A DNA stretch of 64,000 nucleotides, taken from contig JBBRTD010000003.1 of assembly GCA_038244685.1 (NCBI GenBank), positions 3,944-67,943 of the forward strand. Reading direction: 5' to 3'. The notes below the pieces were generated by a model. It was not told the DNA's origin. It worked only from the letters and a program-made list of their open reading frames with translations, and ran no database searches. The stretch is from Minisyncoccia bacterium (GTDB lineage: Bacteria; Patescibacteriota; Minisyncoccia; Phycocordibacterales; UBA9973). Positions 9,466 through 48,146 of the stretch are shown in pieces (the first letter of the stretch is position 1; each line of letters opens with the position of its first letter). Both the position numbers and the translations under genes were made by a program.

Positions 9466-9570
9466 ATTCTTCTAGTATACAGTTCCGCTTGCTTTTTTCA
9501 AAACTTTTGTGTATTATAATACCTGTGGAAAACCTATGTATTTAGGTGTTCCTATATAATATATAAATAT

Positions 9571-9933: not shown

Positions 9934-9940
9934 ATCTTAA

Positions 9941-9976
9941 AAAATAAAACTCACGCAAGTGAGTTTTATTTTTTTA
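9941..9976. terminator. Rho-independent terminator shared by rplU (+) and recR (-)
   Basis: aaaactcac-gcaa-gtgagtttt hairpin followed by T9. Confidence 0.7.
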
Positions 9977-10588
9977 TGATCTATTTCTTAATGCATTTTT
10001 AATCGTTTCTGAATCAGAGTATTCAAGTTCTGTGCCAGTCGAGAGCCCTCGTCCGAGGGATACAATATTAAAATTATAGCTACTTTTAAGTGGAGATAAA
10101 ATTTCTCTTAAATACATATCTGTATGTTCACCTTGAGGATTAAGAGATAAAGCAATTATGACTTCTTTGAGACCGCTTTGTTTTGATTGATTTTCTATAT
10201 TACGGGTCAATTCTTTAATTCTTACATAGTTTGGAGTATCTTTGTTTACAATAGGGACTAATCCACCTAATATAAAATACATACCGTTGTAGTTCTTACT
10301 TCTTTTTATATTTTCATAATCAGCATCTTTTTCAACAATAAGAAGGGAAGTTCTATCTGTTTTTTGATTACTGCAAACATCACAAAGTTGATCTTGTTTT
10401 GATTGAAAGAAAAGGAAACAAGAAGGGCATTGGTGAATTGTATTTTTTAAATCTAAAATTTTATTTCCAAGTTCTAAAACAAAACTTGGGTTTTTATGCA
10501 ACAGAAAATAGACAAATCGCTTGGCTTGTCTTTCTCCTATTCCAGGGAATTCTTTAAAATGTTCTGTTAATTTATCTATGGGGTTCAT
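9974..10588 (-). CDS. recR: Recombination protein RecR
   Basis: HhH FPGIGERQAKR. C4 zinc finger CPSCFLF...CDVCS. Toprim domain. Confidence 0.85.
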   Translation of the reverse strand: MNPIDKLTEHFKEFPGIGERQAKRFVYFLLHKNPSFVLELGNKILDLKNTIHQCPSCFLFFQSKQDQLCDVCSNQKTDRTSLLIVEKDADYENIKRSKNYNGMYFILGGLVPIVNKDTPNYVRIKELTRNIENQSKQSGLKEVIIALSLNPQGEHTDMYLREILSPLKSSYNFNIVSLGRGLSTGTELEYSDSETIKNALRNRS

Positions 10589-10606
10589 ATTTGTAATATT
10601 TCAGAT

Positions 10607-12034: not shown

Positions 12035-12104
12035 ATAAATATATCTGATAAACCGGGGGATAAAATGTGCAAAACTTTCATTATTTTGATATTATATAAA
12101 GTAT

Positions 12105-13076
12105 ATGAAAAAAAGATTATTATCAGGAATTCAACCTTCGGGAATCATACATATAGGTAACTATTTTGGAGCTATAAAACAGTTTGTTGACCTTCAGAAT
12201 GAATACGACTCTTTTGTCTTTATAGCTGACCTTCACGCTATTACAACCATCCAAAATAAGGATATATTATCTTTAAATACATTAAACGTCGCTATGGATT
12301 ATTTAGCTTGCGGCTTAGACCCTGAGAAAATATGCTTATTTAAGCAGTCCGATATTCCAGAAGTTGCTGAACTTGCTTGGTATTTTAATTGTATTACAAC
12401 AATGCCATATTTAGAGAGAGCAACAGCCTATAAAGATGCAAATATGAAAGCCAAAGAAGTAAATGTAGGACTTTTTGATTACCCAATTCTAATGGCCGCA
12501 GATATTTTGATACAAGATGCTGATGTTGTTCCAGTTGGCGCAGACCAAAAGCAACACGTAGAATACGCCAGAGATATAGCTCAAAAATTTAATAATACAT
12601 TTGGAGAGACATTTAAATTACCAGAACCAATTATTCTAAAAGAAGTTTCGATTGTGCCTGGTATTGACGGAAGAAAAATGAGCAAGAGTTATGGTAATAC
12701 CATTCCATTGTTTGGATCAGATGAACAAATTAAAAAAGCAGTCATGGGTATAGTCACTGATTCAAAAAGCCCAGAAGAATCTAAAGACCCTGAAAAATGT
12801 AATATTTTTGCCATACATAAATTATTCTTAAAAGGAGAAGACCTAGAAAATCTTAAAAATAGATATACGAAAGGAGGTTTAGGATATAAAGAATCAAAAG
12901 ATATGCTTTTGAGTGAAATTATATCTTTTATTAAACCAATGAGAGAAAAGAGGGATTTTTATGAAAAAAATATAGATATTGTTAAGGGGATTCTTAGGGA
13001 AGGATCTCTTAAGGCAAAAAATAACATACAAGAAAAAATGAAAATTATTAGAATTAATGTTGGCGTAAATTTATGA
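12105..13076 (+). CDS. trpS: Tryptophanyl-tRNA synthetase
   Basis: SGIQPSGIIHIGNY and KMSKSYGN motifs. 323 aa. Confidence 0.9.
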   Translation: MKKRLLSGIQPSGIIHIGNYFGAIKQFVDLQNEYDSFVFIADLHAITTIQNKDILSLNTLNVAMDYLACGLDPEKICLFKQSDIPEVAELAWYFNCITTMPYLERATAYKDANMKAKEVNVGLFDYPILMAADILIQDADVVPVGADQKQHVEYARDIAQKFNNTFGETFKLPEPIILKEVSIVPGIDGRKMSKSYGNTIPLFGSDEQIKKAVMGIVTDSKSPEESKDPEKCNIFAIHKLFLKGEDLENLKNRYTKGGLGYKESKDMLLSEIISFIKPMREKRDFYEKNIDIVKGILREGSLKAKNNIQEKMKIIRINVGVNL

Positions 13077-32711: not shown

Positions 32712-33371
32712 ATGAATATATTAACCGCAACAAAGCGAAGTAAGACAGATAAGCTAGCTATCATACGAAATAACGGTATGGTTCCAGCTGTCGTTTATGG
32801 CGCTCAAGTGGAAAACACTCTTGTTTCCGTTTTGAGCTCAACTTTCGCTAAAACATTAAAAATTGCCGGCGAGACTAGTACAATCGTACTTGAAATAGCA
32901 GGCGCAACTGAAAAAGAAAAGCCAACAAGAGTTGACGTTTTGATTCATGAAGTGCAGGTACATCCAGTTAAAGGATATCCTTTACATATAGATTTCTTGG
33001 CTGTCGATATGAATAAGCCAGTTGAAGTTACCATTCCTCTTGAATTCGTTGGCCTTGCAAAGGCTGAGAAGGATGGACTAGGTACACTTGTTAAGGTCTT
33101 ACATGAAATTGACATAGAAGCTCTACCAAAAGATCTACCACACAATATCGAAGTTGATGTTACTGGTATCGCAACTCTTGAAGATTTAATTCACGTTAAA
33201 GATATTAAACTTCCAAAAGGAGTTACTCTTATAACTGACGAAAACGATGTTGTTGCCCTCGTAGCTGCAGCAAAAGAAGAAAAAGAAGAAGTCGTTGTTG
33301 ATTTAACTTCTATCGAAGTTGAAAAGAAAGGAAAGAAAGAAGAAACTGAAGAGGTTGCTGAAACTAAATAA
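32712..33371 (+). CDS. rplY: 50S ribosomal protein L25 / general stress protein Ctc form
   Basis: MNILTATKRSKTDKLAIIRNNGMVPAVVYG N-terminus. Acidic KEEKEE tail. Start set to ATG 32712. Confidence 0.85.
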   Translation: MNILTATKRSKTDKLAIIRNNGMVPAVVYGAQVENTLVSVLSSTFAKTLKIAGETSTIVLEIAGATEKEKPTRVDVLIHEVQVHPVKGYPLHIDFLAVDMNKPVEVTIPLEFVGLAKAEKDGLGTLVKVLHEIDIEALPKDLPHNIEVDVTGIATLEDLIHVKDIKLPKGVTLITDENDVVALVAAAKEEKEEVVVDLTSIEVEKKGKKEETEEVAETK

Positions 33372-33387
33372 ATATTGTTTTATACAT

Positions 33388-33420
33388 AAAATCCCTCAGA
33401 TATATTATCTGAGGGATTTT
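33388..33420 (+). terminator. Terminator after rplY
   Basis: Perfect 15-bp stem aaaatccctcagata/tatctgagggatttt with 3-nt loop. 3' arm ends UUUU. Confidence 0.6.
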
Positions 33421-33438
33421 ATGTGCTATAATAGATAC

Positions 33439-34815
33439 ATGAATCGATACATTCTATACCTTTTTTCTTTTATATTTATATTTACTTCAATTTTTGGCAA
33501 TTTTATTTATGAAATACCAATTGTTTCTGCTAGTCAAGAATTAGAAAATGCTCAAGCAGACAGAGCGAGGCTTGAAAGTGAACTTGCTGCCTTAGAAAAT
33601 GAAATAGCCCAAAAACAAAAAGACCTTTCTTCTCAAAAAGGGCAGTCTGTGTCTATTTCTCGTGATATTTCAATATTAACTACCCAAATCAAGAAATCTA
33701 AGCTTGAAATTCAATCAAAAATTTTAATGATTAAAAAGCTTGGTGGAGAAATAATAGAAAAAAATAAAAAAATAGTAGTTTTAGATACAAGAATGGGCAA
33801 CATAAGAGAATCATTAGCTCAGTTAATACGCAAAAATAGAGAAATAGATAGTAAGTCTCTGCTGGCGATCATTCTTTCACAAAATTCAATTTCTGATGCA
33901 TACGGAGATATTGACGCATTCGCTTCAATAAAAAGAAGTATCAAAGTTTCAGTCGATCAAATCAATGGAGTAAAAACAGATACAGAATTAGAAAGATCCC
34001 TCTTGGAGCAGCAAAAAAATAAAGAGCTAGATACTCAAATCCAACTTGAAACAGCAAAAAAACAAGTTGAGATAAGTGAAAAAGACAAACAGCAACTTCT
34101 TTCAATAAGCAAAGACAAAGAAAAAGAATATCAAAAGCTTTTAGACGAGAAAGCAAAACGTAGAGCAGAAATTCTTTCAATGTTATTTAATCTTCGTGAT
34201 GTATCAGCTATTCCATTTGCTAAGGCTCTTGAGTATGCCAAAATAGCTGAGGAGAAGTTGGGAATTAGACCAGCATTTCTATTGGCAATATTAACGCAGG
34301 AAAGTAATTTAGGAACCGACCAAGGATCTTGTTATGTTACTAATATGGATACAGGATCAGGAATTAGTTCAAAGAGTGGAAAAGCATTTGCGAATGTTAT
34401 GAAGCCAACTCGCGATGTTAAACCATTCTTTGAGATTACATCAGCGGTTGGACGTGATCCGTATAAAACATTAGTTTCTTGCCCAATTGGTGGCTCAGGT
34501 TATGGAGGAGCAATGGGTCCCGCCCAGTTTATTCCTTCTACATGGCAATTGTTAAAAAATCGTATTGCAAGCTTACTTGGAATTAAAACCGCTGACCCTT
34601 GGTATGCAAAAGATGCATTTATGGCCTCTGCTATATACTTAACAGATTTAGGAGCAAGAGAGGATAGTCCAACTAGTGAAAGAAATGCTGCTTGTCGATA
34701 CTATTCAGGAAGAAAATGTGACACAAAAAAGCCAAATAATAGCTTTTATGGGGATAGTGTTATGTCAAAAGCTAAAAATATACAAACTAAATATATTGAC
34801 CCATTGCAAAACTAA
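33439..34815 (+). CDS. Secreted coiled-coil lytic murein transglycosylase (MltB/GH103-like C-domain)
   Basis: Signal peptide MNRYILYLFSFIFIF. About 250-aa coiled coil. C-terminal ESNLG...GAMGPAQFIPSTW motif. Preceded by TGcTATAAT at 33424-33432 (leaderless). Confidence 0.65.
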   Translation: MNRYILYLFSFIFIFTSIFGNFIYEIPIVSASQELENAQADRARLESELAALENEIAQKQKDLSSQKGQSVSISRDISILTTQIKKSKLEIQSKILMIKKLGGEIIEKNKKIVVLDTRMGNIRESLAQLIRKNREIDSKSLLAIILSQNSISDAYGDIDAFASIKRSIKVSVDQINGVKTDTELERSLLEQQKNKELDTQIQLETAKKQVEISEKDKQQLLSISKDKEKEYQKLLDEKAKRRAEILSMLFNLRDVSAIPFAKALEYAKIAEEKLGIRPAFLLAILTQESNLGTDQGSCYVTNMDTGSGISSKSGKAFANVMKPTRDVKPFFEITSAVGRDPYKTLVSCPIGGSGYGGAMGPAQFIPSTWQLLKNRIASLLGIKTADPWYAKDAFMASAIYLTDLGAREDSPTSERNAACRYYSGRKCDTKKPNNSFYGDSVMSKAKNIQTKYIDPLQN

Positions 34816-35071: not shown

Positions 35072-35107
35072 GATAAAAGGCTCTAATTAGAGCTTTTTAT
35101 CTTTTTT
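35072..35107 (+). terminator. Terminator after rpmE
   Basis: gataaaaggctct-aatt-agagctttttatc hairpin (one G-U), then T6. Confidence 0.6.
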
Positions 35108-35123
35108 GGTATATAATAATGAA

Positions 35124-36095
35124 ATGAATTTAGACTTAGAACAACTTAAAAAGGATCATAAAACAAGTTACTTTGCTTTCGAATACGAACGCCTCTTGAA
35201 CGAAGAAGAGAAAGTAAATGAAATGGTAACAGGGGACGAAAGTCTTCGTGATTTAGCAGAAGAAGAAATTCAAAATATTAAATTTCAAAAAGATGCTATT
35301 GAGCGTCAAATTGAAGAGATGGTTAAATCAGAAAAAGAAGATGAAGAATTTCCAAATGAAATTGTTCTTGAGGTTAGAGCTGGAGCTGGAGGAGATGAAG
35401 CTTCACTTTTCGCTTGGGAATTAGCTCACATGTATGAAAGATTTGCTGAGATAAATAGATGGCACTGGAAAGTACTAAATGAATCTACCAGTAGTGCCGA
35501 TGGATACAAAGAAGCTTCTTTCGAAATAAAAGGTAAGGATGTCTACAAACTTCTTCGTTATGAGACAGGTGTTCATCGTGTCCAACGCGTTCCTTCGACA
35601 GAAAAAAATGGCAGAATTCATACTTCGACAGCTTCAGTTGCTATTTTGCCGATTCGTACAAAAGTAAAAATTGAAATAAACCCAAGCGATTTAGAAATAG
35701 AATATTCACGTAGTGGGGGTGCGGGAGGGCAAAATGTTAACAAAGTTGAAACAGCAGTTAGACTAATACATAAGCCAACAGGTATAGATGTCCGATGTAC
35801 AACAGAGAGAAATCAGCTTGGAAATAGAGAGAAGGCTTTTATGATTCTATCATCGAAATTACAAATGATGGAAGATGAAAGAGAAGCAAGTAAATACTCT
35901 GAAAATCGCAAAAATCAGATAGGCACGGCGGACCGAAGTGAAAAAATACGTACATATAATTTTCCTCAAGATAGAGTAACAGACCACCGCATTAAACAAT
36001 CTTGGTCAAATATTCCAGGCATTATGGAGGGTAATATAACTAAAATAATAGAAGCAGTTTCTTTGGGGGAAATGGGAAATGATGAAGAAGAATAA
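35124..36095 (+). CDS. prfA: Peptide chain release factor 1
   Basis: GGQ motif [14 protein letters not shown] tripeptide (RVPSTE) indicates RF1 rather than RF2. TATAAT 7 nt upstream of ATG 35124; track ORF starts at TTG 35106. Confidence 0.85.
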
Positions 36096-36158: not shown

Positions 36159-36425
36159 TTGTCCTTTGTCATAAAAAATAAATATATTAATATTAAATAT
36201 AAATTCATAATGCAAATGAAAATAGTTCCCGTATGTATTTCTTCCGTAACAGATAAGATCTTCAGTAAAAATGTCTTATCAAAAATAACAACTATTTTTG
36301 TTTTAAGTTTAATATTAATCACATCTCTCTTTGCTATTTTCCCAAACCAAGCTCAAGCTGTTTGGACAGAAAGAACGACAGCTGGCTCTAGAAATTGGCT
36401 GTCTATCGCATCATCAGCAGATTGA
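36159..36425 (+). CDS. Signal-peptide-bearing N-terminal fragment of giant Asp-box/FN3 surface protein, terminated by in-frame TGA (likely start ATG 36210)
   Basis: Signal peptide ...ITTIFVLSLILITSLFAIFPNQAQA, then first repeat WTERTTAGSRNWLSIASSAD. TGA 36423-36425 sits where GGA(Gly) occurs in all other repeats. Same frame as 36537..45047. Confidence 0.55.
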   Translation: MSFVIKNKYINIKYKFIMQMKIVPVCISSVTDKIFSKNVLSKITTIFVLSLILITSLFAIFPNQAQAVWTERTTAGSRNWLSIASSAD

Positions 36426-36536
36426 ACTAAACTTGCGGCAGTTGCAAAACCTGGATATATATATACATCTACTAATAGTGGAGTATCTTGGACAGAAAGG
36501 ACAACAGCTGGCTCAAAAAATTGGCAATCAATTGCT

Positions 36537-39500
36537 ATGTCCTCTGACGGAACTAAATTAGTTGCTGCGGTTTTTGGTGGCGATATTTATACCTCGACAG
36601 ATAGTGGAGCGACCTGGACAGATAGAACTGGTGCCGGTTTAAGAAATTGGTATTCCGTTTCTTCTTCATCAGATGGAACTATATTAATGGCAGCTAATGA
36701 TGATGGATGGTGGGCTTCATATATTTACACATCAGAAGATAGTGGTGCCACTTGGACACAGCAAACTGGGACGGGTGCTAATCATTTTTGGAGAGCTACA
36801 GCAATATCAGCAGATGGATCCAAAATGGTAGCTGTTGCAAATAATGATAATATTTACATATCAAATAATACAGGGTCAACTTGGATAAAAACTGACTCAA
36901 GTCTTATAACTTGGACATCAGTTACTATGTCTTCTGATGGAACTAAACTAGCTGCAGTTGCTGGTGCTCCGTATCAATATGGTAATCCTAGTTACTATGT
37001 CTATACATCTATTGATGGTGGAACAACTTGGCTAGAACAGACTGGATCTACAAAAACATCATCTAGATTTTCTATTGCTTCTTCTGCTGATGGAACTAAA
37101 TTAGCTACTGCTGATTATGGTATTTATTCGTCGGGTGATTATATAAACAAATCTAACGATAGTGGAACTACTTGGTCAACACAAACAACTGCAGGACAAA
37201 GATTATGGAAATCTATTGCTACATCTGCCGATGGATCAAAATTAGCTGCTGTTGCTTATGGTGGATATATTTATACTTACACACCTACCTTAACTTCAAC
37301 AATAACAACAGACGTTAATTCATCTCTAACTCAAACATCTACTATACTAAATGGAACTATTACAAATATTGGAGAAGAAAATCCAAGTATTAGAGGTTTC
37401 GAGTATGGATTAACTACAGGATACGGAACAACCACAGTAGATAATGGTTCCTTTGGTGTTGGTTCTTTCAGTAAAGATATTACATCGCTATCTTGTGGAA
37501 CTTTGTATCATTTCCGTGCTTATGCGACTAATAGTGGAGGTAAGGCAATAGGAGGTGATCAAACTTTTACAACAAATCCATGTACTTACCCATTACTAAG
37601 TACTAATTCTGCTTCTTCTATATCTTTAACAGGAGCTACTTTAAATGGAAATATTTCAAATATTGGACAAGATAATTCTACAGTTAGAGGATTTCAATAT
37701 GGATTAACAATAAGTTACGGAACAACGACAACAGAGAATGGATCTTTTGCTACAGGAGCTTTTACTTCTGATATTGTTGGTCTAAATTGTGGAAATACTT
37801 ACCACTTCCGTTCATATGCCACTAACTCAATAGGTACTGGTTATGGAGATGATTTAACTTTCGCAGCAAGTAATTGTTCATCTGCCGGTTGGGTTCAGAG
37901 AACAAGTGCTGGGATAAATCCTTGGATGTCAGTTACTACATCAGCAGACGGAACCAAATTAGCTGCGACTTCAAATAATAATGGTAATGGATATATTTAT
38001 ACTTCAACAGATAGTGGTGTCACTTGGACACAAAGAACAGGTGCAGGTTTTAAATTTTGGACATCAATTGCTTCATCTGCAGATGGAACTAAACTAGCTG
38101 CTGCTGTTTACAATGATTATATTTATACATCAACAGATAGTGGGGCCACTTGGACACAGCAAACTGCTCCAGGAATTAAAAATTGGATGAAAATTATTTC
38201 ATCAGCAGATGGAATGATTCTAGGTGCGTGGAATACAAGTGACGGAAGATTTAGTACATCAATAAATGGTGGAGTTGCATGGACAATACAATACGGGGCA
38301 AGTTCAGTTGGAATAGGAGCAAACGTAACAATGACTCCTACTGGAGATAAAATGGCAGGATCTTATGATGGTAATATTTCTTATATTTCTACTTCAAGTA
38401 ATTCTGGTGTTACCTGGACAAAACAATTAAATTCCGACGAACGTAGTTGGAGTGGAATAACAATTTCTTCTAATGGAACTAAAATTGCAGTAACTTCAGG
38501 TGGAATGTCCAATCTTGGTTATATTTTTACATCGACAGACAGTGGAGTAACCTGGACACAGAGAACAAGCGCGGGGAATTTAAAATGGATGGATATTGCT
38601 TCATCCTCTGATGGAAATACATTGATTGCAACAACATTTAATGGTTACATGTATTTATCTAGAGATTCTGGAAATACTTGGATAGAACAAACATCTACAG
38701 GCATAAAATACTGGAAGGATATTTATTCTTCATCAGATGGAAGTAAATTTATAACAATTGGATGTGATACAAATTGCTATATTTACACTTACGAACAAGC
38801 CCACCTTTCAACATTAGATACAAACCCTGCAACCTCCATTCTTTCAAACGCAGCTACTTTAAATGGTTATATTTCTAATACAGGAGGAGAAGTTTCAAGT
38901 GTGAGAGGATTTGAATATGGTATAGATACAAGTTATGGAAAAAATACAATTGAAAATGGATCATTTGGAATTGGTGCGTTTACAAAAAATGTTTCAGCTT
39001 TAATTTGTGAGACCACATACCATTACCGTTCATATACCACAAATGGTGGCGGAAATTCATATGGGGCAGATCAAACATTTACTACTGGTACATGTTCTGG
39101 TATTCCCGTTATGTTAACAAGCGCCGCTTCAAATATATCTCCAACCTCAGTTACCTTAAATGGTGATATTACTGATATCGGATTAAGTAGTCCTACAATA
39201 AGAGGGTTTGAATATGGACTAACAACAAACTATAGTGCATCAAACATAGGTAATGGTACATTTGGAGTTGGTGCATTTTCAAAAAATGTCTCAGCTTTAA
39301 TTTGTGGTTCTACTTATCACTATCGTTCATTTGCTACAAATACCACAGGAACAGGTTATGGACAAGACTTAACATTCAATACAAGTCCTTGTATTTATCC
39401 TTCACTATCTACCAATACTGCAACATTAGTGACTTCTATTTCTGCTACTTTAAATGGATCTATTTCAAATACAGGAGGAGTAAATCCTACAGTTAGAGGT

Positions 39501-42500
39501 TTCGAATATGGAACAACAATAAGTTATGGAACAACTGTAAACGAAAGTGGTACATTTGGAATTGGATCATATACTAAAAATACTACAGGACTTACTTGTG
39601 CAACTCTATACCACTATCGTGCTTATGCAACGAATAGTAACGGAACAGGGTCGGGGAATGATCAAACATTTACCACAGGAACATGTTCTGGAATTTCAAC
39701 ATTAACAACAGAATCAGCAAATTTAATTTCATTAAACTCTGCAACTCTAAATGGAACCATTACAAATACAAGCGGTGAGAATCCAACAGTTCGCGGTTTT
39801 GAATATGGAACAACCATAAGTTACGGAACATCAACAATTGAAAGTGGTTCATTTGGAATTGGAGCTTATATAAAAAACGTTAATACTTTAACTTGTGGAA
39901 CTCTATACCACTATCGTTCATATGCCACAAATAGTGGAGGAAGCGGTTATGGTAACGATCAGACATTTACCACAGGAACTTGCTCTGGTATTTCAACGTT
40001 AACAACAGAAGCAGTATCTACTCTTACTTCAACTTCTGCTACATTAAATGGAACTGTCACTAATACAAATGGTGCTAATCCTACAATTCGAGGTTTCGAA
40101 TATGGAACAACAATAAGTTATGGAACAACTGTAAATGAAAGTGGAACATTTGGAATTAGTAGTTACTCAAAAGATATTTCTTCTCTAACTTGTGCAACCC
40201 TATACCACTTCCGTTCATATGCCACAAATAGCGTTGGAACAGGTTATGGTAATGATCAAACATTTACCACAAACAGTTGTACATACCCTGACTTAACAAC
40301 TACATATGCAACATCAATTGTTAAAACTGCAGCCACACTAAATGGATCTATTTCAAATACAGGAGGAGTAAATCCTACAATTAGAGGATTCGAATATGGG
40401 TTAGATACTAGTTATGGAACTCAAGTAAACGAAAGTGGTTCATTTGGAATTGGATCATACTCTAAAAATATTTCTTCTTTAACCTGTGGAACTCTATACC
40501 ACTATCGTTCATATGCCACAAATGCCAATGGTACAGGAAATGGTAATGATCAAACATTTACTACTGGTACTTGTTCTGGAACAATAGGATGGACGGCTCA
40601 ATATAATATAGGAGCAAAAACGTGGTGGGCAATTGCCTCTTCCACTGATGGAACAAAATTAGCAGCAACAGCCATAAGTGATTATATTTATACTTCTACA
40701 GATGGTGGTTTAAACTGGACGGCACAAATAAATTCAGGAATAAATGGTTGGTATTCAATAGCATCATCTTCTGATGGTAATAAATTAGTTGCAATTGGCT
40801 CTGACTTCAGTGGTTGGGGATATATTTATACATCAACAGACAGCGGAGTGACCTGGACAAAAAGAGTGAGCGCTGGTAATCGTACATGGGGTACTGTGGT
40901 CTCATCTTCAGATGGAACTAAACTAGCAGCAGCTGTTAATAATAGCGATGTATATACTTCTACAGATAGCGGAGCCACATGGACAGAAAGAACAGGAACA
41001 GGTTCACACTACTGGGGAACTGTTGCCATGACTTCATCTGCCGATGGAATGAAATTAGCAATAGTTTATTACAACGGTTTAATTCAAACATCAGTAGACG
41101 GTGGAGCAACTTGGACAGCCCAAGCAAATTCTGGAATGCTTGGATGGTCAACTATAGTTTCATCTGCTGATGGAAATAAATTAGCTGCAGCAACTTCCAA
41201 TAGCTATATTTATACATCTATTGACAGTGGAGTAAATTGGACCGCTCAAACTAATTCAGGAGCAACTCACTACTTTAGAAATATGTTTTCATCTCCAGAT
41301 GGTTCAATATTATTTGCCTTAGATAATAGTTCTACAAATAGCTATATTTATAAATCCATAGACAGCGGAGTGACTTGGACAACTGATGCTATTGCTGGGT
41401 CTAAAAGATGGCAAACATTATCCTCATCCTCAGATGGATCTAAATTAGCAGTTGCAAATTCGAGTGATTATTATATTTATACATATGGAGATATAAATAT
41501 GCCTAAGCCGACAGTAGATACAGCTGTTATTACAGGAGTAAGTACGGTAACACTTAATGGATTTGTTGATACAGATAACACAACTCGAGGATTCCAATAT
41601 GGACTAACAACAAGTTATGGAAATACAACAACAGAAAATGGAACATTTAATTATGGACCAATGACTGCAAATATTTCAGGAATTACGCCTGATGTTACTT
41701 ACCATTTCCGTTCGTATGCGACAAATTTATCTGGAACTGCGTATAGTGAAGACAATATATTTGTTCTTAAATACCAAAACTGGACACCAAATACTATTGT
41801 TGGCTCTCGTTATTGGAGTGCAGTAGCTTCATCATCTGATGGAAATAAATTAGTTGCAGTGGTTCAAGGTGGATATATTTATACATCAACTGATGGCGGA
41901 ACAACTTGGACAGAAAGAAATGGCGCAGGTTCCAGACAGTGGAAAGCAGTTGCCTCATCAGCTGATGGAACAAAACTTGTAGTGGCCAATGGAAGCAATG
42001 GCTTTATATATACATCGACAGATAGCGGAGTTAATTGGACACTAAGAACTTCTTCAGGATTATACTGGTGGATGTCACTTACATCATCATCTGATGGAAC
42101 AAAATTAGCCGCGACGACAGGGAATGGTACGGGATATATTTTCACATCAGCAGATAGTGGAGCAACTTGGGTACAACGTTCAGTTTCCGGTTCCCATAGT
42201 TTTAATTCAATTATTTCTTCAGCAGATGGAACTAAATTAGCAGCAACTGCTTACAGTGATTATATTTATACATCAACTGACAGTGGAGCAACCTGGGTGC
42301 AGAGAACAAATTCAGGTTCTCATAGTTTTTATTCAATTGCATCATCTGCCGATGGAACGAAATTAGCAGCAGCTAGTCATGATTTAAGTGGTTATATTTA
42401 TACATCAACCGACAGTGGAGCAACATGGGTAAAAAGAACAAGTGCAGGTATACGCACTTGGACATTAATTACTTCATCTTCCGATGGAACAAAATTAGCT

Positions 42501-45047
42501 GCAATTGATATAAAAACTTCGACAAGTACTGGCTATATTTATATATCAAATGATAGTGGAGCAAATTGGATAGCTGAAGCAAGTGCAAGTACTCGTGCTT
42601 GGACTTCGTTAACCTCATCAGCTGATGGAAGTAAATTAATTGCAGGAGTAAGTAGTAATTATTTATATTCTTATTCTCTACCAACTTCTCCAATTGTTAA
42701 AACAAACTCAGTAACACTTTCAACTGGAACATCTGTAACTCTAAATGGTCAAATAATAGATAATAAAGGTGACAATTCTACTGTCAGAGGATTCCAATAT
42801 GGATTAACAACAAGTTATGGAACTACAACATTGGAAAATGGATCATTCGGAGTCGGAACTTTTTCAACAAATCTAACAGGTCTTACCGCAAATACTACTT
42901 ATCACTATCGTTCTTATGCAACAAATTCACTTGGGACAAGCTACAGTGATGATGCAACTTTTGAAATAAAACCATTCGTCGAACAAATCACTTCTGGTAA
43001 GCATTATTGGTATGCAATTACTTCATCTTCCGATGGAACAAAATTAGCTGCAGTTGATTACGGTGGAAGTAGTACAGGAAGTATATACACATCAACAGAC
43101 AGTGGCGCCAACTGGACACAAAGAACAACTTCTAATTCACATAAATGGCTATCTATTACTTCATCTGCAGATGGAACTAAATTAGCAGCAGCTGCTTATC
43201 CTGGGTATATTTATACGTCACTCGATAGTGGAGTAACATGGGTAGAGCAGACAAATTCTGCATCATGTAATTGGAATGGGATTACTTCATCTACCGATGG
43301 AATAATTCTTGCTGCAATTGGAACTAATTGTATTTATACATCAGAAGATAGTGGTGATACTTGGACATCAAGGAATAATTCAGGACTTAACGGGGGAAAT
43401 TCAATTACTTCATCTTCAAACGGAATAAAAATGGCAGCAACTAATGGATTAGGTTATATATACATATCAGGAGATAGTGGTACAACTTGGACCGCTCAAA
43501 CAAGCTCAGGTTCACATACATGGCGTTCAATAACTTCATCTGCCGATGGAACAAAATTAGCTGCAATAGATTATCTTGGAACTGGAAGTGGTGGTTATAT
43601 TTATACATCAACAGATAGTGGTGTTACTTGGACGCAACAAACAAATTCTGGAGCTCGATATTGGATGTCAATTACATCATCGACTGATGGAACGAAATTA
43701 GCAGCAGTAGTTAATAATAATTATATTTATACCTCAGTAGATAGTGGAGTTACTTGGACACAACAATCAAGTGGAGGCTTACGTACTTGGTATTCCATTA
43801 CTAGTTCATACGACGGAATTAAAATAATTGCCGCAGCTTCAAATAGTAATATTTTTACCAATACTATTCCAGAAGTTCCATTAGTAAATACGCAAGATGC
43901 ATCTTCAGTTACGGTTAGTTCCGCGGTTTTAAATGCAACCATTGAAAACTTGAGCGGAGAATATCCAATCAGTAAAGGATTTGAATATGGATTAGACACA
44001 AGCTACGGAAGCACTGTTATTATAAATGGAGTATCAAGCCAGAGATCATATGCGATGGACGTAACAGCACTAGCAGAAGATACAACTTATCACTATAAAA
44101 GTTATGCTACAAATACTGTCGGAACAGGTTTCGGAGATGATCAAACCTTCACCACAGCTTCTGTAGAAGAAATAACATCTTTCGATTCAATACCAAATAT
44201 TACTGGAGGATTAGCAGGAAGCCCTACTTATGTAGATGCAGCAGCTATAATCGCAATATTACCATCATCCGTAAAGGCAAATAGTAATGCCGCGACAGTT
44301 CCTGTAACTTCATGGACAAACACTGATTTATATAATACAAATATGCCAGGAAGTTATACATTTACAGCAACACTAGGATCAATCCCTGTAGGATTTGCAA
44401 ACTCTGGGAACTTCACAGCAACGATAGAAGTAATAATTGGAGGAGTTCCTGTTACTGGTGGCAAAATCGAGATAAGAGGCGGTGGAGGTGGTGGATCTTC
44501 AACAAGTACAGTTTATATTGATCAGAAAAAGGATCCAATTCTTCCATCACTACCGAAGTCTGACCTAGAATTAAATTCTATAACAGCACAAGGATGTATA
44601 CCTGGAGGTTTATTCAGTGTAACAACAGGTAAACCATGTACAGGAATAACTCCAATTACACAAGAAGAAAAGACTACAACTGTTAAAACTATTATAGATA
44701 ATAGCCAAATAATAACTAAAACAATTACAGGATGCACAACAGGATCTTTATTCAACATAATATCAGGAGAGCCATGCAGTACAATAAATACAATTCAACC
44801 TTTAGACTCTGTATCTAAAAGCACCAGCTCTCTTGTCTTCACTAAATTGATTAAAATCGGAAGTAGAAGTGCTGATGTCAAAAAAATACAAACATATTTA
44901 AATGCAAGAGGTTTTGATTGTGGAATTGTAGATGGTTACTTTGGCTTCAAGACCAAAAGTAGTCTGATAAATTTCCAAAAAATGAATAAATTAACTCCAG
45001 ATGGAACAGTAGGGAAGATAACAATTCGGGCAATGAATAGTATTTAA
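36537..45047 (+). CDS. Giant (2836 aa) cell-surface protein: 5 blocks of BNR/Asp-box beta-propeller repeats alternating with 11 FN3-like domains, C-terminal Cys-motif and PG_binding_1 anchor
   Basis: About 35 S-x-D-x-G-x-T-W motifs on a ~42-aa period (YIYTSTDSGxTWT...SSxDGTKLAA). Eleven ~98-aa units ending ...YHYRSYATNSxGTGYGxDQTFTTGTCS. C-terminal GSRSADVKKIQTYLN...VDGYFGFKT...FQKMNKLTPDGTVG peptidoglycan-binding domain. Confidence 0.85.
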   Translation: MSSDGTKLVAAVFGGDIYTSTDSGATWTDRTGAGLRNWYSVSSSSDGTILMAANDDGWWASYIYTSEDSGATWTQQTGTGANHFWRATAISADGSKMVAVANNDNIYISNNTGSTWIKTDSSLITWTSVTMSSDGTKLAAVAGAPYQYGNPSYYVYTSIDGGTTWLEQTGSTKTSSRFSIASSADGTKLATADYGIYSSGDYINKSNDSGTTWSTQTTAGQRLWKSIATSADGSKLAAVAYGGYIYTYTPTLTSTITTDVNSSLTQTSTILNGTITNIGEENPSIRGFEYGLTTGYGTTTVDNGSFGVGSFSKDITSLSCGTLYHFRAYATNSGGKAIGGDQTFTTNPCTYPLLSTNSASSISLTGATLNGNISNIGQDNSTVRGFQYGLTISYGTTTTENGSFATGAFTSDIVGLNCGNTYHFRSYATNSIGTGYGDDLTFAASNCSSAGWVQRTSAGINPWMSVTTSADGTKLAATSNNNGNGYIYTSTDSGVTWTQRTGAGFKFWTSIASSADGTKLAAAVYNDYIYTSTDSGATWTQQTAPGIKNWMKIISSADGMILGAWNTSDGRFSTSINGGVAWTIQYGASSVGIGANVTMTPTGDKMAGSYDGNISYISTSSNSGVTWTKQLNSDERSWSGITISSNGTKIAVTSGGMSNLGYIFTSTDSGVTWTQRTSAGNLKWMDIASSSDGNTLIATTFNGYMYLSRDSGNTWIEQTSTGIKYWKDIYSSSDGSKFITIGCDTNCYIYTYEQAHLSTLDTNPATSILSNAATLNGYISNTGGEVSSVRGFEYGIDTSYGKNTIENGSFGIGAFTKNVSALICETTYHYRSYTTNGGGNSYGADQTFTTGTCSGIPVMLTSAASNISPTSVTLNGDITDIGLSSPTIRGFEYGLTTNYSASNIGNGTFGVGAFSKNVSALICGSTYHYRSFATNTTGTGYGQDLTFNTSPCIYPSLSTNTATLVTSISATLNGSISNTGGVNPTVRGFEYGTTISYGTTVNESGTFGIGSYTKNTTGLTCATLYHYRAYATNSNGTGSGNDQTFTTGTCSGISTLTTESANLISLNSATLNGTITNTSGENPTVRGFEYGTTISYGTSTIESGSFGIGAYIKNVNTLTCGTLYHYRSYATNSGGSGYGNDQTFTTGTCSGISTLTTEAVSTLTSTSATLNGTVTNTNGANPTIRGFEYGTTISYGTTVNESGTFGISSYSKDISSLTCATLYHFRSYATNSVGTGYGNDQTFTTNSCTYPDLTTTYATSIVKTAATLNGSISNTGGVNPTIRGFEYGLDTSYGTQVNESGSFGIGSYSKNISSLTCGTLYHYRSYATNANGTGNGNDQTFTTGTCSGTIGWTAQYNIGAKTWWAIASSTDGTKLAATAISDYIYTSTDGGLNWTAQINSGINGWYSIASSSDGNKLVAIGSDFSGWGYIYTSTDSGVTWTKRVSAGNRTWGTVVSSSDGTKLAAAVNNSDVYTSTDSGATWTERTGTGSHYWGTVAMTSSADGMKLAIVYYNGLIQTSVDGGATWTAQANSGMLGWSTIVSSADGNKLAAATSNSYIYTSIDSGVNWTAQTNSGATHYFRNMFSSPDGSILFALDNSSTNSYIYKSIDSGVTWTTDAIAGSKRWQTLSSSSDGSKLAVANSSDYYIYTYGDINMPKPTVDTAVITGVSTVTLNGFVDTDNTTRGFQYGLTTSYGNTTTENGTFNYGPMTANISGITPDVTYHFRSYATNLSGTAYSEDNIFVLKYQNWTPNTIVGSRYWSAVASSSDGNKLVAVVQGGYIYTSTDGGTTWTERNGAGSRQWKAVASSADGTKLVVANGSNGFIYTSTDSGVNWTLRTSSGLYWWMSLTSSSDGTKLAATTGNGTGYIFTSADSGATWVQRSVSGSHSFNSIISSADGTKLAATAYSDYIYTSTDSGATWVQRTNSGSHSFYSIASSADGTKLAAASHDLSGYIYTSTDSGATWVKRTSAGIRTWTLITSSSDGTKLAAIDIKTSTSTGYIYISNDSGANWIAEASASTRAWTSLTSSADGSKLIAGVSSNYLYSYSLPTSPIVKTNSVTLSTGTSVTLNGQIIDNKGDNSTVRGFQYGLTTSYGTTTLENGSFGVGTFSTNLTGLTANTTYHYRSYATNSLGTSYSDDATFEIKPFVEQITSGKHYWYAITSSSDGTKLAAVDYGGSSTGSIYTSTDSGANWTQRTTSNSHKWLSITSSADGTKLAAAAYPGYIYTSLDSGVTWVEQTNSASCNWNGITSSTDGIILAAIGTNCIYTSEDSGDTWTSRNNSGLNGGNSITSSSNGIKMAATNGLGYIYISGDSGTTWTAQTSSGSHTWRSITSSADGTKLAAIDYLGTGSGGYIYTSTDSGVTWTQQTNSGARYWMSITSSTDGTKLAAVVNNNYIYTSVDSGVTWTQQSSGGLRTWYSITSSYDGIKIIAAASNSNIFTNTIPEVPLVNTQDASSVTVSSAVLNATIENLSGEYPISKGFEYGLDTSYGSTVIINGVSSQRSYAMDVTALAEDTTYHYKSYATNTVGTGFGDDQTFTTASVEEITSFDSIPNITGGLAGSPTYVDAAAIIAILPSSVKANSNAATVPVTSWTNTDLYNTNMPGSYTFTATLGSIPVGFANSGNFTATIEVIIGGVPVTGGKIEIRGGGGGGSSTSTVYIDQKKDPILPSLPKSDLELNSITAQGCIPGGLFSVTTGKPCTGITPITQEEKTTTVKTIIDNSQIITKTITGCTTGSLFNIISGEPCSTINTIQPLDSVSKSTSSLVFTKLIKIGSRSADVKKIQTYLNARGFDCGIVDGYFGFKTKSSLINFQKMNKLTPDGTVGKITIRAMNSI
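38805..40572 (+). repeat. Tandem array of six ~294-bp FN3-like domain repeats with long near-identical DNA stretches
   Basis: Recurrent ggaactctataccactatcgttcatatgccacaaatag and caaacatttaccacaggaacatgttctgg segments at ~294-bp spacing. Confidence 0.7.
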
Positions 45048-45086
45048 TTCCCTAAAAAATTAACATATTAAATAAAACAAATTATT

Positions 45087-48000
45087 TTGAAAAAATTCAA
45101 AAACCTAAAATTAATTTTCTCAGTTTTTATTAGTCTTCTTATTATTATAAGTAATTTAAATTCGCCAATTTTAGTAAATGGTGAAGATAATTTTAATTAT
45201 AATATTAAAAAAGAAGTAGGAATAAAAAATTATGCCGATGGAGAAATAATTGTAAAATTTAAAGATGACAAAGTAAAATTAGATACAACTTCTGGTAAAT
45301 TAAAAATGGCAACTCTTGCCCAAGATAACTCACTTGAAAAAAAAGAAGACCTAAAAGAGAATAATATTTCTGTTTTTAAAATCAAAGATAATAAAACAGT
45401 AGAAGAAAAAATAGCAGAATTAGAAAGTGATCCAAATGTTTTGTATGCTGAGCCCAACTACAAACGTTATCCAAGTTCTATTAGTACTAATGATACTAGC
45501 AAAAATTTACTATGGGGTCTTGATAATACAAGCCAAACAGTGAACAGCGTTTCGGGCACTCTCGACGCTGATATAGACGGACCAGAAGCTTGGGCAATTA
45601 ATGAAGGGACTAATTCTTCTGTAATCGTGGCAGTAATAGATACCGGTGTTGGATTTAATCATCCAGATATACTTGCAAATATGTGGGATGGAACAAATTG
45701 TAAAGATCAGCTGGGTAATTTTTTAGGAGGATGTAATCATGGTTATGACTACGAAAGCAATGATAAGATTCCATTACCACTAAGTAACTCTCACGGTACT
45801 CATGTCTCTGGTACAATCGCTGCTTTAAAAAATAATAGCAAGGGTATCATCGGAGTTGCACCAAATGCGAAAATAATGGCAATTAAATTTGGCTTTACTG
45901 TTAATGATGAAATAAAAGCAATAAATTTTGCTATTAAAAATGGAGCAAAGATAATTAATGCTAGTTTTGGAGGTAGCTCATTTTCACAATCTGAGTATGA
46001 TGCAATGAATCTATTCAAACAATCAGGCGGAATTTTTGTAGCAGCGGCAGGTAACGATGGTCTCGATAACAATACAATTCCTGTTTATCCTTCAAGTTAC
46101 GATTTAGACAATATCATATCAGTTGCAGCAACTGATCAAAATGATAGCCTTGCGACATTTTCAGACTACGGAACAACTTCAGTTGATGTTGGAGCTCCTG
46201 GTACAAATATTTTAAGTCTTATTACAGATACTGATGGTTCTGATGAAAAATATGGATATGGTAATGGAACTTCTATGGCAGCTCCTCATGTTGCAGGTCT
46301 TGCCGCATTAATCTGGGGAATGAGACCATCTCTTACTTACATCCAGGTCAAAAATATTATATTAAGTACTGGCGATTCGCTTCCGTCCTTAAATACTAAA
46401 ACTGTTTCAGGAAAAAGAATTAATGCATTTAATGCCTTAAATTATGTTTTAACTAATTATATTACTTATCCAACTGCTACTATTACTTACTCAGATACTG
46501 ACTTGATTGTAAAAGCTGGAGATTCATTAACTATTACAGCAAATTTAAATGAACCTGTACTAGACTCTCCATCATTAAAAATATCTATTAGTGGATCAAA
46601 TATATTAGCCCCAACCTTAATGACGAAGGTTAGTAATACGCAATATACATATATATATACAGTTAAAGAAGGGGATGGAATAGCTAATATTAATCTATCT
46701 AATGCAACAAATGCCGAAGGAAATTCTATTGTCAGCATTCCAAGCTCTGGCTCTTCTTTTACTGTTGATAATACAGCGCCAACAATATCAATTAGTTCTC
46801 CATCTGCATTATTTACCAAATCTGGACCTATTACATACATCGCAACATATACAGACGCTACTTCAATAACATTAGCTGATATAGATGTAACCCTAAATAC
46901 TACAGGAGGAGCCACTGGAACAATCAATGTTTCTCCAAACGATGAGACAACAAGAAAAATTTCAATTTCAAATATAAGTGGTGATGGAACACTAGGAATT
47001 AGTATAAATACAAACACTGCCTCTGACATAACTGGTAATATATCCCTATCAACAAGCCCAAGTGAAATTTTTACAGTTGATAATACTGCTCCTTTAAATC
47101 AAGATATAGTATTCAGCTCGTCTTTAAACAAAAAAGGTAGCAGTTTAATAAATATTGTTTCTTCAGAAAACATAAATAATAATGTATGGATTGCACCAGA
47201 AGGAACTAATTTATTTACAGAAAGTTCTACTATAACAAAAGCCATCAACGGCACAGCTCTGAGTATCTTAGCCCCAGAAAGCGAAGGTGTTTATAAAATA
47301 TTTATAATTGATGAAGCTGGTAATATTTCTGCTCCATCTCTATCAACTCTAACCATAGATAATACTGCCCCTTTGATGCCTACAATAACATCAATAGCGA
47401 ATGATAATAAAATTAGTTATGAAGAAAAAAATTCTATTCACATAACAGGAATAGCTGAAGCTAACTCACTTGTAACAATATCTTTAACCGATAATATAAA
47501 TACAAAAGTTGGAACACAACAATTAATAAATAATAATACAAATTATGATATTGAAATTATAGGGTCAGAAGCTATTCCTTCGGCACTTATTGATGGCACA
47601 ATATACATTACAGCTACATCTACAGATGAAGTTGGAAATATTTCCCCAATAAATAATTTAAATGTTGTTCAATCTCCACAAATTATAGTTACAAATAGTG
47701 GAGGCGGTGGGGGTGGTGGTAGCTCGAGTTATACTACACCAACAATTAATCCAATTATAACAACCGCAATACCAACACCGTTGATTAGTCAAACTGCAAT
47801 ACCAGGATGTGACACTATGTCATTATTTAGTACAATCACAGGTAAGTCATGCGGAAATACAAACATAGCACCAATATTTAATACGGATACAAATAAAGAG
47901 ACTCCCGTTTTATATAATATTACTAAAACATTAAAACAAGGTAATAATAATAATGAAGTTAAGGTATTACAAAAATATTTAAATTCAAAAAGTTACTATA

Positions 48001-48146
48001 TATCGCTATCAGGTCCAGGTTCTATTGGCAAAGAGACAACATTATTCGGTCCTGCAACAAAAAAAGCGCTTATTAAATTCCAGAAAGCTAATAAATTAAA
48101 GGCTGACGGAGTAGCAGGAGCTATAACCAGAAGTCTAATTAAATAA
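45087..48146 (+). CDS. Secreted subtilisin-like (S8) serine protease with I9 propeptide, Ig-like (TVDNTAP) repeats and the same C-terminal Cys-motif + PG_binding_1 anchor
   Basis: Catalytic triad motifs VIDTGV (Asp), HGTHVSGTIAA (His), GTSMAAPHVAGLAAL (Ser). TTG start with signal peptide. C-terminal GGGGGGGSSS...GCDTMSLFSTITGKSCG...EVKVLQKYLN...FQKANKLKADGVAG. Confidence 0.85.
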   Translation: MKKFKNLKLIFSVFISLLIIISNLNSPILVNGEDNFNYNIKKEVGIKNYADGEIIVKFKDDKVKLDTTSGKLKMATLAQDNSLEKKEDLKENNISVFKIKDNKTVEEKIAELESDPNVLYAEPNYKRYPSSISTNDTSKNLLWGLDNTSQTVNSVSGTLDADIDGPEAWAINEGTNSSVIVAVIDTGVGFNHPDILANMWDGTNCKDQLGNFLGGCNHGYDYESNDKIPLPLSNSHGTHVSGTIAALKNNSKGIIGVAPNAKIMAIKFGFTVNDEIKAINFAIKNGAKIINASFGGSSFSQSEYDAMNLFKQSGGIFVAAAGNDGLDNNTIPVYPSSYDLDNIISVAATDQNDSLATFSDYGTTSVDVGAPGTNILSLITDTDGSDEKYGYGNGTSMAAPHVAGLAALIWGMRPSLTYIQVKNIILSTGDSLPSLNTKTVSGKRINAFNALNYVLTNYITYPTATITYSDTDLIVKAGDSLTITANLNEPVLDSPSLKISISGSNILAPTLMTKVSNTQYTYIYTVKEGDGIANINLSNATNAEGNSIVSIPSSGSSFTVDNTAPTISISSPSALFTKSGPITYIATYTDATSITLADIDVTLNTTGGATGTINVSPNDETTRKISISNISGDGTLGISINTNTASDITGNISLSTSPSEIFTVDNTAPLNQDIVFSSSLNKKGSSLINIVSSENINNNVWIAPEGTNLFTESSTITKAINGTALSILAPESEGVYKIFIIDEAGNISAPSLSTLTIDNTAPLMPTITSIANDNKISYEEKNSIHITGIAEANSLVTISLTDNINTKVGTQQLINNNTNYDIEIIGSEAIPSALIDGTIYITATSTDEVGNISPINNLNVVQSPQIIVTNSGGGGGGGSSSYTTPTINPIITTAIPTPLISQTAIPGCDTMSLFSTITGKSCGNTNIAPIFNTDTNKETPVLYNITKTLKQGNNNNEVKVLQKYLNSKSYYISLSGPGSIGKETTLFGPATKKALIKFQKANKLKADGVAGAITRSLIK

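Follow-up and report, generated by a model that had tools for sequence, protein, structure and literature searches.

Two adjacent genes in a 64,000-nucleotide stretch of a Minisyncoccia genome (the window, of which positions are given throughout) encode a giant surface protein and an S8 subtilase that end in the same succession of elements: a poly-Gly run, a short Cys-bracketed motif and a PG_binding_1 domain. This raises the question of what such a tail does and whether it could hold both proteins on a cell wall. A considerable part of bacterial diversity belongs to the Patescibacteria (CPR), which live attached to other cells. The order of elements described in the initial annotation was recovered in both proteins, with every element in frame at the positions compiled in Table 1, and the close spacing of the two genes, with a scan of the gap between them yielding no terminator, likewise held up.

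Table 1. Positions of the gene pair, of the protease domains and of the tail elements within the window.
Feature	Position	Strand	Remarks
Giant surface-protein gene	36210..45047	+	about 2945 codons; ORF as listed 36537-45047; start near 36210
Putative poly-Gly hinge, giant protein	44478..44495	+	GGGGGG, then SSTST; kept in the L001 and L064 counterparts
Cys-loop motif 1, giant protein	44595..44639	+	CIPGGLFSVTTGKPC; kept in L001 and L064
Cys-loop motif 2, giant protein	44733..44777	+	CTTGSLFNIISGEPC; aligns with the protease motif
PG_binding_1, giant protein	44868..45035	+	PF01471, 55.6 bits, E 6.2e-15
Intergenic gap	45048..45086	+	39 bp, AT-rich; no terminator-like site in scan
S8 subtilase gene	45087..48146	+	1019 aa; TTG start
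Protease signal peptide	about 45087-45182	+	signal-peptide-like N-terminal segment
Protease Fervidolysin-type prodomain	45210-45458	+	Pfam/family search
Peptidase_S8 domain	45615-46379	+	PF00082, E 3.4e-54
Putative poly-Gly hinge, protease	47700..47720	+	GGGGGGG, then SSS
Cys-loop motif, protease	47808..47852	+	CDTMSLFSTITGKSC
PG_binding_1, protease	47949..48134	+	PF01471, 49.8 bits, E 4e-13

The giant protein is built from a signal peptide, β-propeller repeats (BNR/Sortilin-Vps10-type) that alternate with Cys-pair blocks of about 100 aa, a Big_4 domain and the tail, with Pfam matches to Sortilin-Vps10, BNR, PSII_BNR and Big_4. For the "FN3 blocks" of the initial annotation, a Pfam search found no fn3 match. 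The giant ORF as listed is devoid of the signal peptide, and a single in-frame TGA at 36423-36425 cuts the gene downstream of it; the L001 counterpart carries the same signal peptide without interruption, and the L064 counterpart comprises 2936 aa. Genetic code 25 (UGA = Gly) was rejected: Under table 11 the long ORFs run through without interruption, TGA terminates the ORFs at 715-1797 and 12090-13076, and only one in-frame TGA was seen. The protease, which is identical to database protein P0001, can be assigned to the Peptidase S8 family (subtilases) by its PF00082 match and by the sequence contexts of Asp, His and Ser (DTG at residue 185, HGTH at residue 236 and GTSM at residue 394). It resembles fervidolysin-type S8 proteases in its succession of a Fervidolysin-type prodomain, an S8 domain with these D/H/S contexts and Ig-like repeats, which here lie between the Peptidase_S8 domain and the tail. 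Its putative anchor consists of poly-Gly, Cys loop and PG_binding_1 instead of LPXTG, an SLH module or a C-terminal domain of the Por type. Both proteins start with a signal-peptide-like segment and would be exported.

The tails of the two proteins align with each other over 110 residues at 35% identity (E 6e-17), which supports their homology. A chance or low-complexity artefact was rejected, since translating the window in all six frames yields the pattern C-x5-[FY]-[SN]-x2-[TS]-G-x2-C three times, each time in these tails, as compared with 0.005 occurrences expected from residue shuffles. Two further origins were also discarded: Recent duplication within the genome is contradicted by the identity values of the protease tail, which are 45-59% to the corresponding tails of P0002, P0003 and P0005-P0007, its closest relatives, versus 36% to the adjacent giant tail, and slippage-prone poly-G DNA by the mixed Gly codons in both poly-Gly runs. 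Neither protein has LPXTG within its final 300 residues, and both terminate in PG_binding_1, so that the tails do not present themselves as substrates of sortase-dependent covalent anchoring. A C-terminal membrane anchor was found in neither protein. Because both LPXTG and such a membrane anchor are missing, non-covalent attachment would apply.

The most familiar part of the tail is its end. In both proteins the terminal domain scores above the PF01471 gathering score of 23 bits, which places both tails in the PG_binding_1 family by sequence; the terminal 55-60 residues above the Pfam threshold are what they have in common with the Streptomyces albus Zn DD-peptidase (1lbu), phiKZ gp144, SleB and CtpB. 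An AF2 model of the protease tail (pLDDT 85-97 over residues 41-120, and above 90 for the PG_binding_1 domain) predicts a compact helical bundle, whose fold can be superposed on solved PG_binding_1 structures with an rmsd of 1.7-3.5 Å over about 75 aligned columns; Foldseek assigned a probability of 1.00 to 4c2e, 3bkh, 6tci and 1lbu, and its matches comprise CtpB, phiKZ gp144, the AP3 endolysin, the SleB N-domain, SleC and 1lbu. These matches, however, cover only 73-76 columns of PG_binding_1 and never the Cys motif. Peptidoglycan binding by both tails would be in keeping with this family membership, whereby the domain name is no proof of wall binding: Some PG_binding_1 domains act in protein-protein contacts or regulation, as in MMP prodomains and CtpB.

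The Cys motif itself comprises 15 residues with the consensus C-x2-G-x-L-F-[SN]-x2-[TS]-G-x2-C, which can also be written C-x-[PAS]-G-x-L-[FY]-[SN]-x2-T-G-x2-C and is stable over 459 unique instances; among the 34 instances from S8 homologs there is no exception at either Cys, at the Phe or at the second Gly. While the giant protein carries two copies, the protease carries one, which supplies two of its four Cys in total (205/216 and 908/922). The surroundings are low-complexity linkers rich in Thr, Pro and Ile, with a repeat period of 23-24 aa. That the motif could not be assigned to a named family was confirmed: Apart from PG_binding_1, the tails match no Pfam or NCBIfam family at E<=1, no known family lies over the motif in 60 motif-rich proteins scanned with Pfam, and a motif profile retrieved no PDB entry at E<=10. 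A low-confidence AF2 model of the tandem motif had no Foldseek match, which says little at this model confidence. No description of the motif was found in the literature searched; that search was incomplete, so the motif may yet prove to be published. It was also conceivable that the motif is simply an N-terminal extension of PG_binding_1, which we rejected: The spacer between the two is 30 and 32 residues here and elsewhere ranges from 6 to 717 (median 18), one to eight copies occur per protein, the motif may precede or follow the domain, and some proteins have no such domain at all. In the AlphaFold modelling proposed in the initial annotation, two independent AF2 runs returned the same single β-bridge, which links the Phe at position 7 of the motif to position 14, but the pLDDT over the motif reached only 59-78 (moderate). 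Most likely, the motif folds as a small disulfide-closed loop, in favour of which we count the pairing of Cys in motif proteins; many Patescibacteria inhabit anoxic habitats, which makes extracellular disulfides less certain.

The initial annotation had called for a profile census and had suspected a lineage-specific module. An exhaustive search with a motif-only profile against 1.84e9 representatives yielded 324 protein clusters at E<=1e-3, so that the motif occurs in hundreds of other proteins, and a DNA pattern for the tandem motif, run over 185,579 species genomes, hit 59 loci, virtually all of them in Patescibacteria (estimated chance expectation ~4e-5). By these data, the Cys loop is a Patescibacteria-specific repeat that is uncatalogued in Pfam, NCBIfam and PDB. 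Word-indexed protein searches were far less productive: The 198-aa giant tail as query gave no matches, and the tandem-motif alignment returned one protein. A PG_binding_1-like domain accompanies the motif in 111 of the 145 new proteins (~77%) among the 150 best motif matches, where the element order CCP was found 49 times and PCC 23 times; PG_binding_1 is likewise present in 46/60 motif proteins scanned with Pfam, in 52/66 ORFs of an independent genome-derived set, and in all 22 of the 120 S8 homologs that have the motif. About a quarter of the motif-bearing proteins lack PG_binding_1, including the full-length proteins P0160 and P0253, in which the Cys-loop repeat is the sole candidate anchoring element. 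An N-terminal hydrophobic segment is present in 126 of 142 motif proteins, and the motif itself is often N-terminal, directly after the signal peptide. Further passengers in the Pfam-scanned proteins are PKD, Kre9_KNH, Ice_binding, CARDB and Cadherin-like domains.

The poly-Gly run has a distribution of its own. It occurs in 58 of 120 homologous S8 proteins, at 72-96% of the protein length, where it marks the boundary between passenger and anchor and is mostly preceded by "SS"; in all 35 S8 homologs with both elements it lies upstream of PG_binding_1. In this clade, the slot that follows poly-Gly is also taken by other C-terminal modules, among them SLH (P0111) and, in several homologs, a dockerin-like module. 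Judged by these sequences, poly-Gly would be a general hinge of the S8 clade that is separable from both the Cys motif and PG_binding_1. The counterparts of the giant protein upstream of the protease in L003 and L063 keep PG_binding_1 without poly-Gly and without the Cys motif, and because of these two cases we regard poly-Gly and Cys motif as dispensable. The idea of one surface-display cassette on large exoproteins therefore stands insofar as the same tail is found in both proteins, but not as a fixed unit: The three elements are separable, and the proteins carrying the motif span 83-1858 aa.

We consider it probable, on the strength of the sequence comparisons, that, in exported proteins of Patescibacteria (Paceibacteria-type), the tail elaborates on non-covalent peptidoglycan anchoring in a lineage-specific way. 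The poly-Gly hinge would set the functional "passenger" apart from the anchor, the Cys motif would form a small disulfide-closed loop in one or two copies, and the three-helix PG_binding_1 domain would hold the protein on the peptidoglycan, presumably that of its own cell, in a non-covalent manner. The Cys loop may serve here as an accessory anchor unit, either by adding wall contact (avidity) or as a rigid spacer. Such a tail would extend a known anchoring principle rather than represent a new mechanism: As with the LysM, SLH, choline-binding CW_binding_1 and SH3b anchors of monoderm bacteria, short tandem modules sit at one terminus, and the exported proteins vary in their passengers. The tail differs from these anchors in that there is no sequence match, in that the Cys-loop unit is far smaller (15 residues with one presumed disulfide), and in that the loop mostly accompanies PG_binding_1 and seldom stands alone; relative to known PG_binding_1 proteins, poly-Gly hinge and Cys-loop repeat count as Patescibacteria-specific additions.

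How much the Cys loop itself contributes is where the readings diverge. It is possible, albeit rather doubtful, that the loop is an autonomous ligand-binding mini-domain, that is, a disulfide-stapled hairpin recognising a wall component of Patescibacteria or of the host. Hevein/CBM18 and the C-terminal EGF sub-domain share with it a mini-loop that is bracketed by Cys and in which Gly, aromatic residues and Ser/Thr are conserved, a resemblance that is a lead; in contrast to hevein/CBM18 and EGF-like hairpins, the Cys loop has two Cys only, and it gave no sequence match in Pfam or PDB and none in Foldseek. If this reading were true, the loop would mark the surface-exposed, host-facing proteome and provide a handle for cataloguing host-contact proteins, and it would, in our impression and to our knowledge, rank as a candidate among the smallest modules for wall targeting. 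Only tentative weight can similarly be given to the opposite reading, in which the loop has no ligand and is a purely structural spacer, a stiff bead in a Thr/Pro-rich stalk that lifts the passenger off PG_binding_1. Its regular period within the linkers, its absence from the L003 and L063 counterparts, and AF2 models that put it in no structured element with PG_binding_1 are what such a bead would lead one to expect. Yet a spacer needs neither the near-invariant exposed [FY], [SN], T and G over all 459 instances nor the median distance of 18 residues to PG_binding_1, and in P0160 and P0253 the repeat has no other candidate anchor beside it.

A different target rather than a different function would be implied if the tail directed protease and giant protein to the peptidoglycan of a host or prey, as in phage endolysins, instead of to their own wall. 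We hold this to be unlikely, even though Patescibacteria for the most part live as episymbionts or parasites, the targeting domains of phiKZ gp144, the AP3 endolysin, SleB and SleC are among the closest solved structures, and the passengers are interaction or degradation modules (S8 protease, β-propellers, PKD, cadherin-like); moreover, one viral contig encodes a protein that terminates in the tandem motif. Against a foreign wall speaks the presence of the cell's own wall machinery, with an SLT_2 lytic transglycosylase encoded in the same window (33319-34815) and Mur ligases and PBPs flanking the pair in L003 and L063, and some Paceibacteria-type relatives are described as growing on archaea that have no peptidoglycan.

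The initial annotation had also taken the large protein and the protease to belong together, and this pairing indeed recurs: An S8 protease lies beside a large PG_binding_1 protein in 6/7 loci examined and in at least two genomic contexts. This recurrence, the location of poly-Gly exactly at the passenger/anchor boundary, and the proposal that S8 domains cut giant proteins in Omnitrophota (bioRxiv 10.1101/2023.11.21.568195) would all fit a sorting or processing signal, in which poly-Gly is cut or transpeptidated by a glycyl-glycine endopeptidase or sortase-like enzyme and the S8 protease acts on the giant protein to mature or shed it, but we deem this improbable, given that there is no LPXTG-type signal, that a relative of the protease (L002, 60% identical) occurs by itself within an operon of ribosomal proteins, and that the protease bears the same tail, with which co-localisation fits equally well.

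Returning to non-covalent anchoring as the preferred reading, the locus offers two experimental entry points: One is the Cys loop, a candidate unit of wall binding that is small and accessible to testing; the other is the conserved pair of S8 protease and very large repeat protein, which can be tested for proteolytic maturation. The signature of a Cys loop with an adjoining PG_binding_1 domain, often after poly-Gly, would moreover allow any Patescibacteria genome to be screened for candidate proteins of the cell surface and of host interaction; protein databases annotate such proteins only as "peptidoglycan-binding protein".

The giant beta-propeller protein and the S8 subtilase encoded next to it end in the same module, which comprises a poly-Gly run, a 15-residue motif bracketed by two Cys residues, and a PG_binding_1 domain (PF01471). 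Translation of both ORFs confirmed all strings quoted in the initial annotation, and Pfam places a true member of PG_binding_1 at the C-terminus of the giant protein (55.6 bits) and of the protease (49.8 bits; gathering score 23). The two tails align over 110 residues at 35% identity (E 6e-17), and in a six-frame regular-expression scan the elements tabulated below were the only runs of at least five Gly and the only Cys-bracketed motifs in the window, the motif pattern being observed three times versus 0.005 times expected from residue shuffles. Both Gly runs are encoded by mixed codons, and the shared tail is real and non-random. An LPXTG-type C-terminus is absent from both proteins. The protease tail lies nearer to the tails of its closest relatives, the database proteins P0002, P0003, and P0005-P0007 (45-59%), than to that of the neighbouring giant protein (36%); the common tail is therefore old, and recent copying between the neighbours is excluded.

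Coordinates of the tail elements and of associated features in the window
Feature	Position	Strand	Basis or remark
RF1 gene (PST motif)	35106-36095		directly upstream of giant gene
Upstream extension of giant frame	from ~36210	+	signal peptide and first propeller blade
In-frame TGA, giant	36423-36425	+	GGA to TGA
ORF holding giant tail at 3' end	36537-45047 (as listed)	+	very long ORF
~100-aa Cys-pair blocks, giant	37300-42000, 43900-44200	+	residues ~260-1350 and others
Poly-Gly run, giant	44478-44495	+	six-frame regular-expression scan
Cys motif 1, giant	44595-44639	+	six-frame regular-expression scan
Cys motif 2, giant	44733-44777	+	six-frame regular-expression scan
Protease ORF	45087-48146	+	complete ORF, next after giant
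Poly-Gly run, protease	47700-47720	+	six-frame regular-expression scan
Cys motif, protease	47808-47852	+	six-frame regular-expression scan

The best-supported reading is that, in this tail, non-covalent anchoring to peptidoglycan has probably been elaborated in a lineage-specific way: a poly-Gly hinge would be followed by the Cys-loop repeat(s) and PG_binding_1 as the anchor, with the Cys repeat as an accessory unit that contacts the wall or serves as a spacer. Such a tail would work like the LysM, SLH, and choline-binding repeat anchors, and the concept extends a known anchoring principle.

The protease itself has a signal-peptide-like N-terminus, a Fervidolysin-type prodomain, and a Peptidase_S8 domain (Pfam, E 3.4e-54) with the catalytic contexts DTG, HGTH, and GTSM. 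It contains only four Cys residues (205/216 and 908/922), the latter two being the motif pair. The database protein P0001 is identical to it, and the source names of its relatives, where given, are mostly Paceibacterota, Patescibacteria group, Nomurabacteria, and similar. Among its 120 best S8 homologs, 58 carry a run of at least five Gly, 37 carry PG_binding_1, and 22 carry the Cys motif, all 22 together with PG_binding_1. The Gly run invariably falls within 72-96% of the protein length and in most cases comes after 'SS'. It lies upstream of PG_binding_1 in all 35 homologs that have both; in homologs other than the 22 with the Cys motif, the segment after it consists of dockerin-like repeats, 'GRILLQVE..GEAWY' repeats, SLH, or PG_binding_1 alone. 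This variety argues that poly-Gly is a clade-wide hinge leading from the passenger to a swappable C-terminal module. An apparent alternative module of this kind occupies the C-terminal 200-300 aa of many S8 homologs (P0010, P0015-P0019, P0026, P0054, P0062, P0090, P0116), where poly-Gly precedes repeats of the form 'L.GRILLQVE..G.AWY..P....RYYL......A...MR..GLGI...D'; several homologs have a four-Cys segment ahead of these repeats.

Within the S8 set, the spacing is fixed at 15 residues in 34 motif instances, and C1, F7, G12, and C15 are invariant. Searching 1.84e9 representative proteins exhaustively with a 31-column motif-only profile yielded 324 proteins at E<=1e-3, of which 31 reached E<=1e-10; most are multi-copy proteins, since one copy by itself lacks the length needed for significance. 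The motif is thus present in many other proteins and is more widespread than initially guessed. Carriers range from 83 to 1858 aa and hold one to eight copies, mostly at a period of 23-24 residues, directly after the signal peptide, mid-protein, or C-terminally. The consensus of 459 unique instances is C-x-[PAS]-G-x-L-[FY]-[SN]-x-x-T-G-x-x-C. Of the best profile matches, 145 were new proteins, and in 111 of these a local HMM detected a PG_binding_1-like domain, most commonly in the orders CCP (49) and PCC (23; C, motif; P, PG_binding_1). The spacer between motif and domain has a median of 18 residues. Pfam found PG_binding_1 in 46 of 60 scanned motif proteins next to varied passengers (PKD, Kre9_KNH, Ice_binding, CARDB, Cadherin-like), and an N-terminal hydrophobic segment is present in 126 of the 142 motif proteins starting with Met. 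Where named, these proteins are called just 'peptidoglycan-binding protein [Candidatus Paceibacterota bacterium]'. No Pfam family covers the motif in the 60 proteins and NCBIfam adds nothing over it, in line with the earlier remark that it could not be assigned to a named family; by these comparisons the repeat belongs to no catalogued family among those tested. A minority of full-length carriers lack PG_binding_1, e.g., P0160 and P0253. In P0121 (350 aa), five tandem copies of a variant with two extra residues (CKALSGDIFDITTGKRC) precede a predicted membrane helix and a Pro-rich tail, again without PG_binding_1; in this protein, a membrane anchor appears to present the loops.

AlphaFold modeling, proposed at the outset for the Cys motif, was done with AF2 and reached only moderate confidence over the motif. 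For the protease tail (21-row alignment), pLDDT exceeded 90 in PG_binding_1 and reached only 59-73 in the motif region; for the tandem motif (57 rows), it was ~70-78 over the motifs. In both models, a single beta-bridge per motif connects position 7 (Phe) with position 14, which fits a small closed loop, and we infer a disulfide because the Cys residues are invariant and paired in exported proteins. Foldseek matched the protease tail model to CtpB, phiKZ gp144, the SleB N-domain, and 1lbu over ~75 columns that correspond to PG_binding_1 only; it returned no match for the tandem-motif model, and the motif has no sequence match in the PDB. That the loop is purely a structural spacer is possible, if rather unlikely; that the tail is directed at a host wall instead of the cell's own seems less likely still.

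The proposed lineage specificity of this putative anchor held up. We searched one genome from each of 185,579 species with a degenerate DNA pattern describing two motifs that repeat every 23 residues. It hit 59 loci versus an estimated ~4e-5 chance matches; every locus except one has an ORF that encodes two or more motifs, and in this independent set PG_binding_1 occurs in 52 of the 66 motif ORFs. The labels are Paceibacterota/Paceibacteria, Nomurabacteria, Taylorbacteria, Parcubacteria, Minisyncoccia, 'Patescibacteria group', unclassified 'bacterium', and auto-labelled 'Saccharibacteria', with two exceptions: L009 (a 5-kb CAYIEM-series contig, Gammaproteobacteria) and L061 (11 kb, Syntrophales). 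Since both are short, have 38-40% GC, and carry ORFs closely resembling those of Paceibacteria, they are probably binning errors. The pattern also matched one viral contig (IMG/VR IMGVR_UViG_3300038314_001180; L065, 1135-1701, minus strand), on which a 188-aa ORF without PG_binding_1 has a Gln/Ala-rich, coiled-coil-like segment and ends in a tandem motif (CPPGAKFSAATGEPC ... CHPGAVFNAATGERC).

The genes for the giant protein and the protease are separated by 39 bp, in which a scan found no terminator-like site, as the initial annotation had stated, and their adjacency is not peculiar to the window. In locus L001, which is syntenic with it (PfkB, aldolase, L25, SLT_2, L31, RF1 ... ATP synthase), the protease follows a 1207-aa protein whose poly-Gly/two-motif/PG_binding_1 tail is 56% identical to that of the giant protein. 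On the short contig L064, a 2936-aa protein with the full tail lies upstream and a second beta-propeller/PG_binding_1 protein downstream. In L003 and L063, where the context is instead the dcw/PBP cluster, the upstream large protein ends in PG_binding_1 and has neither poly-Gly nor the Cys motif. At the P0008 locus, a 1031-aa protein for which no Pfam hit is recorded lies upstream, and a PG_binding_1 protein is nearby. Only in L002 does the protease stand alone, inside the S10 ribosomal-protein operon. The pairing is thus kept in six of seven loci and at least two contexts, which supports a functional linkage; action of the protease on its neighbour is not implied by it. In Omnitrophota, S8 proteases have been proposed to cut giant proteins (bioRxiv 10.1101/2023.11.21.568195). 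It is improbable that the tail acts as a signal for sorting or processing in which the neighbouring protease takes part. The L002 relative (9548-13072, 60% identical) lies between the L2 and S19 genes, preceded by a small DAGK-family gene, a location that is unusual for a secreted protease.

In the giant protein, Pfam detects Sortilin-Vps10, BNR, and PSII_BNR beta-propeller repeats and a Big_4 domain immediately ahead of the poly-Gly run. The ~100-aa blocks between the propeller repeats, previously described as FN3, have no Pfam fn3 match and no significant match of other kind; each contains a Cys pair 29 residues apart, with the consensus 'TLNG.I.N.GG.NP..RGFEYG....YG......G.F..G.......L.C.T.YHYRSYATN..G...G.DQTFTT..C'. 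The listed ORF lacks a signal peptide, which is encoded in the same frame upstream and cut off by a single TGA at the Gly of the repeat consensus SSADGTKLAA. As the same signal peptide is intact in a syntenic relative and the counterpart in another relative measures 2936 aa, the gene is one unit of ~2945 codons with one in-frame stop, which may reflect a nonsense mutation, an error of assembly, or readthrough. Genetic code 25 is excluded because TGA terminates other ORFs in the window. Stop codons of window ORFs of at least 150 aa are strongly skewed (TAA 42, TAG 4, TGA 4), and of the four frames ending in TGA, two are probably spurious ORFs in antisense orientation.
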